Source of the DNA: Dictyostelium discoideum
Lineage: Eukaryota
Direction of reading: 5' to 3'
Length of the DNA stretch: 64,000 nt
Assembly: GCA_000004695.1 (NCBI GenBank)
Contig: CM000150.2
Coordinates: 1,120,001 to 1,184,000, forward strand
In this document: positions 2,039-36,723 of the stretch, piece after piece
Layout of the letters: every line of letters begins with the position of its first letter
How positions within the stretch are numbered: position 1 is the stretch's first letter
Program-made: the position numbers and the translations under genes
The notes under the pieces: model-generated
Seen by the model: the letters and a program-made list of their open reading frames with translations, nothing else
Databases searched by the model: none
Told to the model about the DNA's origin: nothing

Positions 2039-2130
2039 ACTCTCATATTAATTTAATATGAAAACAATTTCGACAAAAAAAACATTTTCATTTCACAAAA
2101 AAAAACTTTTTTTTCTGAAAATATTATCAT

Positions 2131-2345
2131 TATTTATTATTTTAAATCTATTATCAAATAAATTATTATATATATTTTTTTTTTTTTTTTTTTGGTGTTT
2201 TGAAGATATTTTTATTTTTCGATAAACAGTTTTTTAAATTTTTTTTTCTAAGTTACTTTTTTTAAGATTGGCATTTTTTGGTGTTTTGAAGATATTTTTA
2301 TTTTTTTCGATAATCAGTTTTTTAAATTTTTTTTTCTTTTTTTTT
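2131..2345. repeat. ~115-bp AT-rich repeat element, present here as one full copy plus one partial tandem copy. It reads 'tattttaaatctattatcaaataaattat...tttttcgataaacagttttttaaatttttttttctaag' and is related to the copy at 4961-5075.
   Basis: Direct inspection: 2131-2262 and 4961-5075 share 'ttaaatctattatcaaataaatta(t)tatat' followed by 'ttatttttttcgataa(a/t)cagttttttaaatttttttttctaag'. The second half recurs in tandem at 2270-2340. Confidence 0.75.
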
Positions 2346-2623
2346 TTTTTATTTTAAATATTCACACTTTCACCAATTAAAACACAAACCCTAAAAAATG
2401 CAATGAGTGAAAGATAACACTCCATTTTGACACCTGTGTTGGTGTTGACTTGAACAAAGATCTAAACCATGGGTTAAAAAAAAAAAAAAAATAAAAATAA
2501 TAGACTTAAAAAAAATATAAATACTTTAAAACTTTTTTTTTTTTTTCATTCTCAAAAATAAATTAAATAACTTTTAAAACAAAAAATTTAAATAAATAAA
2601 ATAAAAAAATTAAAAATAAAGAA

Positions 2624-3895
2624 ATGATAAATATTGAAGATATTTCAAAATCTTCAAATGAAAGTGAAGAAAAACAATTAAAAAGTACAAGTACAAGTTC
2701 AAAACCAAAATACCCATTCGCAGCAAAAAGCTTATTCAAAGGTTCAAATAATATTATACCATATTATTTATCAACCAGTAATACATTCCAATGTGTAGCA
2801 TCTGAGTCAATTCAAACATGGCTTCTTTCAGATGATGGTCATATCTTTACATCCAGTGGTAATTTTGTTTTAGATGTTTCATCAGGTGGTTATTTTGTTG
2901 AATTAGTACAACTTAATTCAAATTCAAAAACTCAAATTTGGACAATTGATACAACAAATAATAAAATTCAAAACCAAGGTAATGGTAAATACCTTGATAT
3001 CGACAATTTGAATATTTGTGTTGCACCTTTAAATGGAAACGCAACTCAAAAATGGACAACTTTTAGAAGAGCACCAATTCCAACTGGTAATTGGGGTTAC
3101 TTTCAAAGCAAAAAATTGGATTCCAATAATAATTATTGGGGTCTAAGTGTATTAAATAATAGTACATCATATAATACTAGTGTAGTAATGAATAAAGTTC
3201 AAGCAAAATCAATAGGTCAAATTTGGCAAATGACAAACGATGGTCACATTTTATCACGTTTGGATGGTAATTTAGTATTAGATATTGGTCCATCAATTAA
3301 TGGTAGTAAAACAAACTATTATTTAAATACCAATGTTTACAAAGCAAATGATCTAATGCAACAATGGGGTATCAACGAAAATAATCAAATATTCAATCAA
3401 TATTATCCAAATTTATGTATTGGATTCGTTGGCGAACTTGGAGTTGATTCAACTGTTAATTGTGTATTAGCTCAACCAACTAGTGCTAGTGATATTAATT
3501 TCCAATGGATTGCAAATCCAACCTATTCATTAAACCAAATTGTTAGTGAAGTACCAGAACCATTTCCAGCTTACACAAGTGGTGATTTATTAGCATCATA
3601 TCAATACCTTAGTAATGATGCAACAAATGGTTATACTGATGATATTAGATCACTTTATACAAGTATTAATGTTAGTTTAGAACATTTCTATGTTAATGTC
3701 TCCAATGCAACTTGTCCATCATCAATTCATTCAACTGAAGATTTTTCAAATGTTCAAAATCAAATCAAAAATGAACTCACCTACGCAATCAATGTCCGTT
3801 TAGTATTTGATAACTATTCCGATTTTTATAGTAAATTATTTAGTCAAGGTAGTACAAATTTAACAAACTTGGCAAATTTAATTAATGTCATCTGA
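2624..3895 (+). CDS. Ricin-B (beta-trefoil, QxW) lectin-domain protein, N-terminal ORF of a split gene. It may belong to the Dictyostelium Cup (calcium-upregulated) ricin-B protein family.
   Basis: Repeated QxW motifs are spaced like beta-trefoil subdomains: 'TQIWTID', 'TQKWTTF', '[25 protein letters not shown]', '[13 protein letters not shown]', 'NFQWIANP'. The 423-aa ORF ends at TGA 3893-3895, immediately followed by a 19-bp tandem duplication. Family assignment beyond ricin-B is inference. Confidence 0.6.
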
Positions 3896-3900
3896 CCAAG

Positions 3901-4950
3901 TTGTTGTCATCTGACCAAGTTGTAAATGGAAATTACACCGATGCAATTACCAGTGTTTTTTATGCAATTATTTCAGAGATACCAATTGGTGGTTCAATAA
4001 TTGCAAACATTGGTGAGTCAGCAGTAGAATTTGGTGAATTAGATGCTGAAAGTAATGATTCAGGCCCATCAACCTATCAAGTTACATTAAGTAAACTCTA
4101 TGATCATTTAAATGAAAATTATGAAAATGAAATGGCAAATGCCCAAAGAATGAAAAATACCATTTTACAAGATTGGGGTATGATGAGTAAAACCTTTGCA
4201 TTATGTTTCTTACCAACCAATAATCCATCCTCACTCAATATCAATGGATTAGACTTTCAAAAAATTTCTACCATAGCTTCTATAGCTTACCAAACTGCAA
4301 TGATTCAAATGTTATTACCAACTAATTATCAAATTTACTTTACACCAGCTGGTTACTATGCACCAGTTTCAAGTGATGATTACTCTTATACTGATAGTAC
4401 TGGAACCTATATTATGGCGGAAATCGATAACTGTAACTCTCATCCTCCAAAAGCTTTAACCGATAAGTTATGGAATAATGGAGTTTCAAAACAAGAAGTT
4501 TTCACATCTTCCTATGGTTGGAATTTAGCTACCTCTGTGACCTATTACAATATGGTCGGTAGATATGGTGGAATGTTTAAATTATCTTTCCCAACTGTAA
4601 AGAATTTAACATCAGTACCAATTCAATTCGTAATGACCAATGGAAGGGATAGAGTTGGTACTTTCAATGTTAAAACTCATTTTACTGGATTAGCCTCAAC
4701 ATATTACAATTCAGGTGCCCTTGGTCATCATTATTACGATATTGCTGTAACTGATATTAACGGTAACAAGGTTGCAAATTTCACAGTTGACAATAATTTG
4801 GTAGCTCTTGAAGGTAGTTATGTTTCAATCAAAACTAATTCATTAGTTGTTCAACCAGGTTATGTTGTTGGTAATCCAACTTGTAATCAAGGTGGTTTTT
4901 CTCAAGGATTTGCTGCTTCAATTTTAATTCCAATTTATAAATCAAATTAA
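3901..4950 (+). CDS. C-terminal continuation or partner ORF of the ricin-B lectin gene. It has no ATG start in the present sequence, and its beta-rich C-terminal domain is of unknown family.
   Basis: The 349-aa ORF is open only from TTG at 3901. Removing one copy of the 19-bp duplicate (3905-3923) restores ATG-TCA-TCT ('MSSDQVVNG...'), which overlaps the upstream TGA by 11 nt. The two ORFs total ~772 aa, the size I recall for Cup proteins (~85 kDa). Confidence 0.45.
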
Positions 4951-4960
4951 AAAAATCGAT

Positions 4961-5075
4961 TTTAATTATTTATTATTTTAAATCTATTATCAAATAAATT
5001 ATATATTTTTTTTTTTCGATAGTTTTATTTTTTTCGATAATCAGTTTTTTAAATTTTTTTTTCTAAGATACTGTT
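4961..5075. repeat. Second copy of the ~115-bp repeat, forming direct repeats around the lectin segment.
   Basis: See 2131-2345. It abuts the truncated paralog fragment at ~5075. Confidence 0.75.
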
Positions 5076-5084
5076 ATCTGGTTA

Positions 5085-5690
5085 TCTGAAAAATTAATTT
5101 CTTGATTTGAAATATTACCTTTAATTTTAGATTTGAATTTAATTAATTGATCAAAGAATAAATCGATTCTATTAATATCTAAAAAAAATATTAAATGCTC
5201 ATTTAAAATTTCTAATTTATTACCTCTTTAACTTTTTTCCAATACTTTATAGAGTGATTCAACTGAAGTTTCATCTTCAAAGATTTTTTCAATTGAAATT
5301 TTAAAATTGAAAAATTGATCTTCATCTTCATCCAATTCACCATATACTTCATTAAAATATTTTTAAGATATATAGATTTCATTGACAAGTATTCATATTG
5401 ATTATAGGTTGAATCCAAATCTATAAAAAACTGTTTACCCCCACTATTGGCTTCTTCAATTAAATCATAAGCTTCACAAATCCATTCAAATATATCACAT
5501 TCTTTTAAATATAATTCATAAAGACCTTCTATTAACTTTTGAAATACATTTGCAAACCTTGATTCTGATCGAATATTATCAAAAAAAAATATTTAAAATT
5601 AATGAATTTAATTCAAGTATTGAATGATAGAATGTAGAAAACAAAATTGGTAGAAATCTTTCTTCTAAATTTTCAGTTGAAATTACAAAT
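5085..5690 (-). pseudogene. Inverted, internally deleted fragment paralogous to the C-terminal third of the 33178..36723 gene.
   Basis: The reverse-strand translation matches 'FSTENLERRFLPILFSTFYHSI', 'YLIEEAN.G.K.F.IDL', 'QYEYLSMKSIYLK', 'ILNEHLIFFLDINRI(N/D)LFFDQLIKFKSKIKGNISNQEINFSD' of the large gene. The acidic and SR-rich blocks are missing and stops are present. Confidence 0.7.
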
Positions 5691-5692
5691 TC

Positions 5693-6241
5693 TTGAATAT
5701 AATCATTATAACCAAACTTTATAGAAATTATGAAACAATTTTATCTCAAGTTGAAATTATATTTAAAAATAATTCAAAAGAATCCATTTTAGAATTCATT
5801 AAATATTATTCATCAAAAGATGTATATGAATTAATTGGTAATTTATATTGTGATCATATGGTTATAATGTTTTATATTCTCTATTCATCAGATACTAAAG
5901 ATCAATATTTAGAATTTTTAAATTCAATTAATCCATATTGTTGTTCATCATCGTCACCAGCATGGTCATCATCAATTGATTCAAAACAAAATGAAAATGG
6001 TTCTGATGAAAATGGTGCAGATGAAAAAAGAGAAAAATATTTACATATTCAATCAATTAAATGTTATTTTCCACTTGAATGGAATTTATTTTTAAATAAT
6101 ATTAAATCATATTCTCCATTTAATAAAGTATTATTATTAACTATTTTTAAAATGTTTTCAATCTTTTCTTTTAATATTAAAAAATCTTTATTTATTGAAT
6201 TTCCTTTTTTTAAATATTTCAATGTTAAATTCATTTTCTAA
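5693..6241 (+). pseudogene. Plus-strand fragment paralogous to the middle of the 33178..36723 gene (residues ~430-600).
   Basis: 'ETILSQVEIIFKNNSKESILEFIKYYSSKDVYELIGNLYCDHMVIMFYILYSSDTKDQYLEFLNSINPYCCSSS...YLHIQSIKCYFPLEWN' is near-identical to the large gene but truncated and divergent at both ends. Confidence 0.7.
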
Positions 6242-6334: not shown

Positions 6335-6465
6335 TGATTTTGTATTGGTATTGGTATTGGTATTGGTATTTGTATTTGTATTGGTATTTGTATTGGTATT
6401 GGTATTGGTATTGGTATTGGTGGTGGTATTGGTGGTGGTATTGGTATTGGTGGTATTATAAAGTT
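6335..6465. repeat. (GGTATT)n hexanucleotide microsatellite.
   Basis: Tandem 'tattggtattggtatt' units; the 'WYWYWY' ORF it generates is an artefact. Confidence 0.9.
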
Positions 6466-8798: not shown

Positions 8799-12710
<3,912 letters not shown>

Positions 12711-33177: not shown

Positions 33178-36100
33178 ATGAAAGAAATAAATAGTAGTAA
33201 GAATGAAATTTTATTTTGGAAAGTTTTTAAAAATAAATTATTATTTAATAATATTTTCGATGTTATGGTAAAAATACCAATAAAATATAATGATTATACA
33301 AAGATTCATTCATTTAATAGAATAAAATTTAAATATATTATTTCATTAAAATTTATGATCGAAAAGAATCTCTATAAATTATTAAAATGTAAATTAGATA
33401 ATAAAGAGTCAATAATTGTTGAAGAGGATTCAATGATTTCGATATTTAAAAAAAAACAAAATATTGAAGATGAAAAAAAAAATGAAAAATTATTATTATT
33501 AATTTTAAAAAATAGAGAAACATTAAAATTAGATAATAGTTTTGATTTTATACAAAAAGCAATATTTGAATCAAATGAAAAAGTTTTAAATCTTTTATTA
33601 AATTATCCAAATGAAATTTCAACAAATCAACTACATCAAAAACCTCTTTTAATAATTAAAGATTCACACATTCAAAGTATAATTGGAAATTCAAATGTTT
33701 CAATGTTAAAAACTTTATTAAATTCATCACTATTTAAAAATCAGCAACAACAACAATTGGAACAATTTCATCAATTAGTACCTTCAAATGAATTAAAAAA
33801 TAAAATTATTTCTATTACAATTAATAATAGTTATCGTTGCAATGAAGAGTTATTAGAATTTATTTTAGATAATCCAACACTTTATAATACCACCACCACC
33901 ACCACCACCAATATCACAAAACCAGATGGTGATATAAATGTTTCAAAAATTGAAATTAATAAATTCTTTGAAATTGAATCATTTGAAATTAAAAAGAGGT
34001 TATTCAATTTAAAGTTTTTAGAAATTGAATTTAACATTGAAATATTTAAAAAAAAAGTGAATTCAATCACTAAAGATTCTTCAATATTAAAAGAAAAGAT
34101 TGAAAACATTTTAAAAATAGTTAATAATAATAAAGAAAATTCCCATGATCAAGATTATGGTAATGAATTTAAAAGTCTTTTAAAATTATATTCTCCATAT
34201 TCAAATGATGTTTATAAACAATACATTTTAAATTATAAAGAGATAATCGATGATGATCATGATGATGTTGAATATTTACAATTTATAGATATTAATAAAA
34301 AGATTGAAACAGAGCTATTATATTCACTCAATACTTTTAATTTAGAATTATTAAAAAAAGTAATTGAAAAAAATGAAAAACAACAAAAACAACAACAACA
34401 AAAACAAGTGTTTCAAGAGATTTTTAAAAAATATGTTCCAATTGATATTTATAGAGAAAATGAAACAGTTTTATCTCAAGTAGAGATTATTTTTAATAAT
34501 AATTCAAAAGAATCCATTTTAGAATTCATTAAATATTATTCATCAAAAGATGTATATGAATTAATTGGTAACTTATATTGTGATCATATTATTATTATGT
34601 TTTGTTTTCTTTATTCATCAGATACTAAAGATCAATATTTAGAATTTTTAAATTCAATTAATCAATATTGTTGTTCATCATCATCTTCATCGTCATTGTC
34701 ATCATCAATTGATTCAGAACCAAATGAAAACGGTGCTAATGAAAATGGTGCAGATGGAAATGGTGGTGCAGATGAAAATGGAGCTGATGAAAATGGTGGT
34801 GCAGACGAAAAAAAAGATAAATATTTACATATTCAATCAATTAAATGTTATTTTCCACTAGAATGGAATTCATTTTTAAAGAATATTAAATCATATTATC
34901 CATTTACTAAAGATAGTAAAGTACCATCAGTTACAATGAGTATTGATGATAAAGAAACAATTGATTGGTTATTTAATACATGTGGTCATTCAACATTTTC
35001 AAAGATAATTGTTAATTATTTACGTTTGAAATCAATTGATTTAATCGAATATACAATTGAAAAATATAAACTCAATGGTAAAGAAAGATCATTACTATAT
35101 TCAATACCATTTTATAATGCAATCATTGATTTCAATGTTAATGAAATTAAAAAAATTATCAATTTAAATATAAATGGTCCAATTGAAGAGTATTATAATT
35201 TCAGTACATTATTATTAAATTCATTTACTGAAAAATTTATTAATAAAGATGAAAAAGATAAACATGAAGATAAAGATGAACACGAACATGAAGATGAAGA
35301 TCAAGATGAAGATCAAGATGAAGATGAAGATGAAGATGAAGATGAAGATGAAGATGAAGATGAAGATGAAGATGAAGATGAAGATGAAGATGAAGATGAA
35401 GATGAAGATGAAGATGAAAAAGATGAATATGAGGATGAAGATTTTTCAAATAATTTTTATAAAACATTCAGATACTTGATAAAAATTAATTTCAAAAATT
35501 TTTCAACAACTGCGTTTAAAGAATTTTTAAACCTGTTATTGATAAGAAGCGATTGTGGTGAACTTATTATAAAAGATATTAATTTTACTGGTATTGAATT
35601 TTCAACTGAAAATTTAGAAAGAAGATTTCTACCAATTTTGTTTTCTACATTCTATCATTCAATAGGTGAACCCGGTCCATTGTCTTTTTATGGCTATTTC
35701 AATAGTAAAGATATGTCTAGAATTTTTTCAGCTAGTTTAGAAATATTTGAAGATTTTGAATTTTATATTAGTGATTGCTCTGGAGATATAGAAAGTCTTT
35801 GTTTGTTTATTGAGTTTTTATTAATCGATTATAAGTATTCAACATATATTCCCTCTACAACTACCAGTAGTAGTAGTAGAAGCAGAAGTAGTAGTAGTAG
35901 TGGTAGTAGTAGAAGTAGTAGAAGTAGAAGTAGTAGTAGTAGTGGTAGTAGTAGAAGTAGTAGTAGAAGTAGAAGTAGTAGTGACTCAAGTACAACGTCA
36001 CCACCATCATCTCCAAATATTGATACTGATAATTTTTCAGAATTAAGGTATCAAAATCTATTTGAAAAGTTAGTAGAGGAAATTTATAAACTTTTATTAA

Positions 36101-36723
36101 AACAAAGTCATAAATGTGGTAAATTTGATTGGGTTTACGTAGGTTATTATTTAATAGAAGAAGCCAATTATGGAGACAAACCATTTTGTATTGATTTGAA
36201 TTCAAACTATTTTCAATATGAATACTTGTCAATGAAATCAATATATCTTAAAAAATATTTAAATGAAGTATATGGAGAATTGGATGAAGACGAAGATCAA
36301 TTTTTCAATTTTAAAATTTCAATTAAAAAAATCTTTGATGATAAAACTTCAGTTGAATCACTCTATAAAGTATTGGAAAAAAGTTTAATACGTGATAAAT
36401 TACAAATTTTAAATGAGCATTTAATATTTTTTTTAGATATTAATAGAATCAATTTATTCTTTGATCAATTAATCAAATTCAAATCAAAAATTAAAGGTAA
36501 TATTTCAAATCAGGAAATTAATTTTTCAGATAAAGTTTTTATTACAACATTAAAAGTTTTAGATGAAAATTCATTTAAATCATTTTTTAATGATTATTGT
36601 TCCAATCAATTTTATTCATTTTATTTTAAAAATAAAGATACAATTACTCTATATGATAATTCTGAAATTGTAAAACAATTAATATCTTTAAAATCTGACG
36701 ATCAATTATCACCAAAAAATTAA
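33178..36723 (+). CDS. Large (1181 aa) orphan protein with a (DE)n acidic block and Arg/Ser-rich tandem repeats; family unknown.
   Basis: Uninterrupted ORF. (GAAGAT)n at 35290-35420 encodes 'DEDEDE...'. 35870-35990 encodes 'SSSRSRSSSSSGSSRSS' repeated. Paralogous fragments lie at 5085-6241. Confidence 0.7.
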   Translation: MKEINSSKNEILFWKVFKNKLLFNNIFDVMVKIPIKYNDYTKIHSFNRIKFKYIISLKFMIEKNLYKLLKCKLDNKESIIVEEDSMISIFKKKQNIEDEKKNEKLLLLILKNRETLKLDNSFDFIQKAIFESNEKVLNLLLNYPNEISTNQLHQKPLLIIKDSHIQSIIGNSNVSMLKTLLNSSLFKNQQQQQLEQFHQLVPSNELKNKIISITINNSYRCNEELLEFILDNPTLYNTTTTTTTNITKPDGDINVSKIEINKFFEIESFEIKKRLFNLKFLEIEFNIEIFKKKVNSITKDSSILKEKIENILKIVNNNKENSHDQDYGNEFKSLLKLYSPYSNDVYKQYILNYKEIIDDDHDDVEYLQFIDINKKIETELLYSLNTFNLELLKKVIEKNEKQQKQQQQKQVFQEIFKKYVPIDIYRENETVLSQVEIIFNNNSKESILEFIKYYSSKDVYELIGNLYCDHIIIMFCFLYSSDTKDQYLEFLNSINQYCCSSSSSSSLSSSIDSEPNENGANENGADGNGGADENGADENGGADEKKDKYLHIQSIKCYFPLEWNSFLKNIKSYYPFTKDSKVPSVTMSIDDKETIDWLFNTCGHSTFSKIIVNYLRLKSIDLIEYTIEKYKLNGKERSLLYSIPFYNAIIDFNVNEIKKIINLNINGPIEEYYNFSTLLLNSFTEKFINKDEKDKHEDKDEHEHEDEDQDEDQDEDEDEDEDEDEDEDEDEDEDEDEDEDEDEDEDEKDEYEDEDFSNNFYKTFRYLIKINFKNFSTTAFKEFLNLLLIRSDCGELIIKDINFTGIEFSTENLERRFLPILFSTFYHSIGEPGPLSFYGYFNSKDMSRIFSASLEIFEDFEFYISDCSGDIESLCLFIEFLLIDYKYSTYIPSTTTSSSSRSRSSSSSGSSRSSRSRSSSSSGSSRSSSRSRSSSDSSTTSPPSSPNIDTDNFSELRYQNLFEKLVEEIYKLLLKQSHKCGKFDWVYVGYYLIEEANYGDKPFCIDLNSNYFQYEYLSMKSIYLKKYLNEVYGELDEDEDQFFNFKISIKKIFDDKTSVESLYKVLEKSLIRDKLQILNEHLIFFLDINRINLFFDQLIKFKSKIKGNISNQEINFSDKVFITTLKVLDENSFKSFFNDYCSNQFYSFYFKNKDTITLYDNSEIVKQLISLKSDDQLSPKN

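Follow-up and report, generated by a model that had tools for sequence, protein, structure and literature searches.

The cupA locus and its two reading frames

The DNA analysed here (the window) is a 64,000-nt stretch of the Dictyostelium discoideum genome (assembly GCA_000004695.1, contig CM000150.2, positions 1,120,001 to 1,184,000), and this report concerns one gene in it, cupA, whose coding sequence is split between two open reading frames (ORFs) that meet at a 19-nt tandem duplication. Coordinates below are window positions unless another sequence is named, and all parts of the gene are on the forward (+) strand. ORF1 (2624–3895) comprises 423 codons and a premature TGA, and it encodes a double ricin-B (beta-trefoil) lectin plus the first helices of a central helical domain. 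Its product is residue-for-residue CupA, 'Calcium up-regulated protein A' of D. discoideum AX4 (Q55FW5 / XP_647418.1 / EAL73186.1, 423 aa), which is encoded on a 4.92-Mb contig, and Pfam assigns it a Ricin_B_lectin match (E=8e-17). ORF2 (3901–4950) is an apparent relic, still open, of the C-terminal 348 Cup codons: in an exhaustive HMMER search, it aligned at 94% identity to residues 422–769 of AAP40294.1, a 769-aa Cup protein.

The two ORFs are in different frames. ORF1 is in frame 2 (start coordinate modulo 3) and ends ...NLINVI-TGA, while ORF2 is in frame 1, i.e., −1 relative to ORF1, and that frame is open from 3886 to 4950. The HMMER search with ORF2 also returned ~58 further, more distant proteins, mostly of 600–800 aa, which aligned in their C-terminal halves. 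A word-indexed protein search with ORF2 gave no match even though the exhaustive search of representatives shows that close relatives exist, a sequence search against PDB chains also gave none, and Pfam identified no domain in the C-terminal half.

CupA shares a 90% identity cluster with CupC, CupF (769 aa), proteins of 765–769 aa from newer D. discoideum assemblies and a truncated CupD. Membership of this cluster (at least 90% identity) and an N-terminal ricin-type beta-trefoil lectin both place ORF1 in the cup family, but cupA lacks the family's continuous ORF of ~769 codons: a stop falls at codon 424, and the rest of the coding sequence is in the −1 frame. Comparison by blastn with cupC, cupF, cupD and the tandem-array loci described below delimits a whole cup repeat unit of ~2.9 kb at 2122–5062, made up of a promoter region, the gene and a short 3' flank, with a ~500-bp upstream region common to cupA and its paralogues. 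Much of this is already known, namely the family, its lectin domain, its Ca2+/calcineurin regulation and the 423-aa CupA, which has been in GenBank and UniProt for years. For the family, PMC1431509 gives Ca2+ induction through calcineurin and cites Coukell et al. 2004, which PMC3188802 cites as well.

The duplication at the junction is perfect. Tandem Repeats Finder describes the array at 3886–3923 as having a period of 19, 2.0 copies, 100% matches, 0 indels and a score of 76. Copy 1 (3886–3904) and copy 2 (3905–3923) both read TGTCATCTGACCAAGTTGT, and a 19-mer search located this unit at those two sites only, head to tail, even with up to 3 mismatches allowed across the window. The number of 19-mer matches expected by chance is 0.01, and at least two matches were found in 0/100 dinucleotide-preserving shuffles. 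The periodic stretch is exactly 38 nt long, with mismatches at both edges (A3885 vs T3904 and A3924 vs T3905). The window has a G+C content of 21.5% and contains many tandem repeats; nearly all of these are A/T-rich simple sequence, unlike the 19-nt unit, which is of high complexity and lies within coding sequence.

Lesion anatomy, product and age

We compared the junction DNA with that of cupC, cupF, cupD and a tandem array of four genes in a more divergent strain (7 copies, 2 assemblies). With AATGTTGATATGTCATCTGACCAAGTTGTTAATGG at this point, 7/7 paralogue copies either form a single continuous ORF or cross the junction unbroken, and their junctions are all AATGTTGATATGTCATCTGAYCAAGTTGTTAATGG (AAT TTA ATT AAT GTT GAT ATG TCA TCT GAY CAA GTT GTT AAT GGA). 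The cupA junction instead reads AAT TTA ATT AAT GTC ATC TGA, followed by CCAAGTTGT, then TGTCATCTGACCAAGTTGT and then AAATGGA. Relative to the paralogues, cupA therefore has an 8-nt deletion (TGATATGT), the 19-nt duplication and one T>A change, for a net gain of 11 nt.

The deletion falls between direct repeats of ATGT, which are 8 nt apart in every paralogue, so that AATGT-TGATATGT-CATC in the paralogues corresponds to AATGT-CATC in cupA. The junction DNA of the 7 copies, the reconstruction described next and a multiple alignment all identify the ATGT at 3885–3888 as the lone retained copy of this 4-nt repeat, i.e., the deletion scar. Taking the paralogue sequence, deleting the 8 nt and then duplicating the 19 nt regains the window sequence except for the T>A at 3924, where cupA has A and 7/7 paralogue copies have T (GTT GTT AAT to GTT GTA AAT). 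This A may have come from a later substitution or been added untemplated at the duplication's 3' edge. Microhomology at the duplication end-points is 0 nt in the present sequence, or 1 nt (T) if the ancestor had GTT at 3922–3924. In a multiple alignment of eight gene copies, the net +11 nt is the sole frame-breaking difference between cupA and its intact paralogues in the 2.3-kb gene; cupA has one other indel, which is 6 nt long, in frame and common to cupD. In protein terms, the break is at V420-D421-M422 of the Cup protein, and the lesion spans codons 420–428.

It is the deletion that accounts for the truncation. It turns ..TCA TCT GAC.. into ..ATC TGA, placing the TGA at 3893–3895 (inside duplication copy 1) in the frame of ORF1, so that one copy or two would yield an identical 423-aa product. 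Three-frame translation bears this out: ORF1 ends ...NLINVI* in the present sequence and in the single-copy one. The duplication overlaps and follows the stop and, given the deletion, is not the cause of the truncation. On its own it would also truncate the protein (..VVVI-TGA), 9 codons later, so either order of the two indels gives a truncated product.

A preliminary description of the locus, made from the sequence alone, had anticipated several of these points. The back-to-back 19-bp repeat that it reported at 3886–3904 and 3905–3923 is the one returned by both searches. It was right that removing one copy yields ATG(3885)-TCA-TCT-GAC, encoding MSSDQVVNG..., with an 11-nt overlap with the TGA of ORF1, and right that the two ORFs differ in frame with or without the duplication. 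What the sequence alone could not reveal is the 8-nt deletion just upstream, owing to which the single-copy version is frameshifted too. It correctly stated that ORF2 has no early ATG but placed the first at Met79, whereas the earliest in-frame ATG is at 4132, codon 78 counted from the TTG at 3901. Its proposal that the ATG at 3885 could be the start of ORF2 does not survive the comparison: the paralogues are continuous across the junction, and this ATG is the family's internal Met422 codon (..NVDMSSDQ..). The likeness it drew between the ATGnnnnnnTGA overlap and a bacterial operon has no standing in this eukaryote. It had also suggested an alignment with paralogues, and the result (single continuous ORFs, with no two-ORF paralogue found among the copies compared) supports a lesion.

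The lesion is also present in sequences produced independently of the reference. Locus L001 of assembly GCA_054883475.1 has the identical duplication (19-mer matches at 4263/4282), the 8-nt deletion and the same gene length of 2327 nt, and its six differences from the window all fall within 2969–3320. AAP40296.1, a GenBank protein of 423 aa whose last residues are NLINVI, matches the ORF1 product of L001 exactly, unlike that of the AX4 reference. The truncation is thus supported by three independent sources and is not an assembly error. Of the three readings left standing by the preliminary description, a recent pseudogene or truncation is supported; the need for an assembly correction is not, as GCA_054883475.1 carries the same lesion and AAP40296.1 has the same 423-aa end; nor are two overlapping cistrons.

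The region in which L001 and the window differ deserves separate mention. Across 2969–3320 (350 bp), the window and cupC are 100% identical, but L001 and AAP40296.1 have cupA-specific bases there, resulting in four amino-acid differences. Either ectopic gene conversion copied this region from cupC in the reference lineage, or the reference assembly is chimeric here.

To see which parts of the protein were kept, we used an AlphaFold model of CupC built with a 44-sequence alignment (predicted local distance difference test score, pLDDT, of 80.5). It places the beta-trefoils at residues 28–296 and helices from residue 300, with a long-helix domain at ~300–561 that includes a hydrophobic element flanked by short strands, followed by a beta-rich C-terminal region. 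A separate model of CupC residues 296–769 has a pLDDT of 88.8. On these models, the break is predicted to lie in the loop after helix 407–417, within the helical domain, not between domains. CupA would accordingly retain the double beta-trefoil lectin and the first helices, with the remaining part of that helical domain and the C-terminal beta-sandwich predicted to be lost.

We read cupA as a dispersed cup copy that was truncated by a compound small-indel lesion (the 8-nt deletion, the 19-nt duplication and the T>A change), leaving ORF2 as an untranslated remnant, and we give this reading a probability of roughly 0.87. The frame-breaking lesion expected of a frameshift-disabled duplicate is real in the genome, being present in two assemblies and one independent deposit. 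The ancestor would have had a continuous 769-codon ORF like those of cupC and cupF. An 8-nt deletion between the ATGT repeats would have created the stop at 3893–3895 and hence the 423-aa CupA, and a 19-nt head-to-tail duplication of the adjoining sequence, with one T>A at its 3' edge, would have had no effect on the product. We infer replication slippage or microhomology-mediated repair as the process, and the same standing applies to the order of the indels or their origin in a single event. Small indels are common in this species: in D. discoideum, those of 1–30 bp occur twice as often as base substitutions, and not just in simple repeats (PMC7466956).

The state of ORF2 is compatible with this reading. 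Leaving aside the junction codons, we counted the positions at which a difference from five intact paralogues is unique to cupA. The ratio of non-synonymous to synonymous changes was 8:3 in the ORF2 part (350 codons) and, in the ORF1 part (420 codons), 5:4 using the independent assembly or 3:2 using the reference, all of these being small counts; the neutral ratio in D. discoideum is 3.32 (PMC7466956). The trend plausibly fits relaxed constraint downstream of the lesion. When ORF2 was simulated with 11 random substitutions, 47% of the sequences stayed stop-free, so its intactness needs no selective explanation; it would still be open because the lesion is young, with ~1% lineage-specific divergence. 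We consider ORF2 most likely a young relic that is not translated. Judged by its sequence, the cupA copy, or its last homogenisation by gene conversion, appears to be recent.

Several points weigh against this reading, or at least against parts of it. Two independent frameshifting indels that abut in an otherwise lesion-free 2.3-kb gene would be an unlikely coincidence, which suggests one compound event or a local slippage hotspot. The substitution counts are too small to establish relaxed constraint (Fisher P = 0.08–0.5), and that ORF2 goes untranslated is something that we infer. Finally, 2969–3320 is probably a conversion tract and cupA is 97–100% identical to cupC at the DNA level (by segment), and gene conversion blurs any dating.

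Alternative explanations

The alternative that survives best is that the lesion arose in one event, in which a double-strand break between the ATGT repeats was repaired by microhomology-primed copying of the downstream 15–16 nt and subsequent end joining, giving a templated insertion. The two indels directly adjoin each other, the gene has no other frame-breaking lesion, and the sole residual mismatch is at the edge of the copied block. The whole lesion can also be written as the replacement of TGATA by CATCTGACCAAGTTGT, a 16-nt downstream copy, primed from the ATGT microhomology. However, two slippage events explain the sequence equally well in a genome where small indels are frequent, and the T>A could be an ordinary substitution. 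We consider a single event possible, though less likely than not.

A bolder suggestion accepts the lesion and gives its product a role. CupA may be a retained lectin-only paralogue, with the double beta-trefoil and a helical stub but no aegerolysin/actinoporin-like membrane-binding end, that is expressed from the conserved cup promoter and modulates or competes with full-length Cups for glycan ligands; the deletion and duplication would then be the templated-insertion scar of the one repair event that created it. We regard this combination as unlikely.

Recoding would make the two ORFs functional together: a programmed −1 ribosomal frameshift or stop read-through could join ORF1 and ORF2 into a full-length CupA. 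ORF2 is indeed exactly −1 to ORF1 and open for 349 codons, and ORF1 has two A_AAT_TTA heptamers close to its end (3856 and 3874). But frame 1 is closed by a TAA at 3883–3885 and ORF1 is closed at 3893–3895, so a productive shift could only occur within 3886–3892 (T GTC ATC), where there is no slippery heptamer, and shifts at the 3856 and 3874 heptamers lead into that TAA. The sequence at 3880–4000 folds with −24.2 kcal/mol (z = −1.05), and 27/200 shuffles are as stable, so no stimulatory structure is indicated; read-through of the TGA reaches a TAA 10 codons on. The two-frame arrangement also occurs in no paralogue, making it a lesion and not a conserved device. Recoding is therefore very improbable.

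We place about as little weight on two separate cistrons, with ORF2 made by re-initiation or from an internal promoter and the lectin and membrane-binding halves produced as two proteins. ORF2 is intact, and a few short homologues cover the C-terminal half only (e.g., P0018, 337 aa, and P0028, 448 aa), though these may be fragments. However, a start at 4132 would drop 77 codons, including a hydrophobic hairpin and two helices, and before that position, downstream of the ORF1 stop, there are nine out-of-frame ATGs. The lineage-specific changes in ORF2, at 8 non-synonymous to 3 synonymous, are near the neutral ratio. In eukaryotes, re-initiation is not expected after an ORF of 423 codons.

A very short intron could remove the lesion, and a published model of this kind exists: KAM9943980.1 (L001 3001–5327 in GCA_054883475.1), in which excising the equivalent of 3872–3900 brings the coding sequence into one frame of exactly 765 aa. 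It is the only frame-restoring candidate in use, and its intron would be 29 nt long, begin with GC, end with AG and have 31% G+C. Dictyostelium introns are typically ~100 nt or more, GT-AG and extremely A+T-rich, so this one departs from them in its ends, length and composition. It would also delete ANLINVD, which is conserved in every paralogue, and the paralogues have no intron here. Such splicing is scarcely credible, and the model is very probably an annotation artefact in which a homology-guided predictor bridged the frameshift. It is informative in another way: KAM9943980.1 joins ..STNLTNL / ..TNL to LLSSDQ.., and since the LLSSDQ peptide needs the junction between copies 1 and 2, the duplication is independently confirmed in GCA_054883475.1.

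Equally hard to credit is a sequencing or assembly artefact, in which the true gene is continuous and the frameshift or duplication was introduced when a multi-copy family was mis-assembled. Cup sequences are highly repetitive, with copies that are 97–100% identical, and the cupC-identical 2969–3320 in the reference is compatible with some chimerism. Against this, the same duplication, deletion and length recur in an independently made assembly, the independently deposited AAP40296.1 stops at the same residue, and the duplicated junction GTTGTTGTCATC is in no paralogue, which excludes its having been borrowed from another copy.

Two further candidates were rejected. One is a transposon target-site duplication or excision footprint: no element sequence stands between or beside the copies, and 19 nt is not known as a target-site duplication length for the DDE_Tnp_4 superfamily. 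The other is that further copies of the unit could bring the frames back together (net +30 nt), but the TGA in copy 1 would persist in the frame of ORF1.

Surrounding sequence, significance and comparison with known systems

The 3' end of the cup unit (4951–5064) repeats its 5' end (2122–2351), with a 33-nt motif (TTCGATAAWCAGTTTTTTAAATTTTTTTTTCTA) at 2218, 2306 and 5033 and an 88-nt tandem repeat at 2188–2351. Such repeats are expected if the dispersed cupA copy came from a head-to-tail array like those at loci L003/L005.

Upstream of the unit lie the end of a GLE1-like gene (157–1104) and a DDE_Tnp_4 (PIF/Harbinger-type) transposase ORF fragment with a poly-Asn run (1613–2038), the latter 0.6 kb from the cup unit and 1.9 kb from the duplication. 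Just downstream of cupA, the sequence at ~5075–6120 has copies of 87–94% identity, in both orientations, ~30 kb away at 34448–36668. These copies are inside or next to an ORF of 1181 codons (33178–36723), and the sequence looks like a dispersed repeat or a duplicated gene fragment. A hexamer array, (GTATTG)x18 at 6342–6451, reads as a (YW)n ORF, and no function is suggested for it. A single-exon ORF of 856 codons at 10140–12710, 5 kb downstream of cupA, codes for a P-type cation ATPase (E1-E2_ATPase, Cation_ATPase_C). Seven ~3-kb contigs assembled from public sequencing runs, without flanks, carry the identical protein.

The feature is an ordinary, real and already annotated truncated paralogue, and it matters little beyond annotation. 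This analysis adds a precise anatomy of the lesion, shows that the protein is not truncated by the duplication, and draws attention to a doubtful gene model. For annotators, Q55FW5 (423 aa) should be seen as the truncation product of a compound frameshift and not as a naturally short family member, and we recommend that KAM9943980.1 not be propagated, given its implausible 29-nt GC-AG intron. For experimental users of Cup proteins, it is relevant that cupA, if expressed, would provide the lectin part only. The junction is also a natural example of an abutting small deletion and tandem duplication, although it would be of interest to the study of DNA repair only if intermediate alleles were found.

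The nearest points of comparison are within the family. CupC (Q7Z202), CupF (Q7Z1I0) and AAP40294.1 (769 aa) have the same ~2.9-kb unit and N-terminal ricin-B lectin as cupA, but their ORFs are unbroken at the junction, where cupA has its deletion and duplication and stops after residue 423. Small indels have shifted the frame of cupD (Q54BF5, 634 aa) too, leaving it, like cupA, truncated in comparison with the 769-aa paralogues. Its lesions are different ones, however: a 2-nt deletion (alignment columns 347–348) and a 20-nt deletion (columns 1840–1859), with the junction at codons 420–428 intact. The 3' part of cupD is also more decayed than that of cupA, with ~61% identity beyond the break. 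The cupD locus is L004 3001–5400 in GCA_054883475.1, and each of its public models (634, 636 and 675 aa) ends in an out-of-frame tail.

Outside the family, cupA resembles programmed −1 frameshift sites in having a second long ORF that is in the −1 frame and shares 10 nt with the first, but unlike them it has no slippery heptamer in the productive window, no stimulatory structure and no conservation. Duplications and deletions of the slippage type offer another comparison: cupA likewise has perfect head-to-tail copies of unique coding sequence and a deletion that ends in an ATGT repeat, and the high background of small indels fits (PMC7466956). It differs from that class in two respects, as the 19-nt unit is flanked by at most 1 nt of microhomology, and an abutting deletion is more typical of compound repair.

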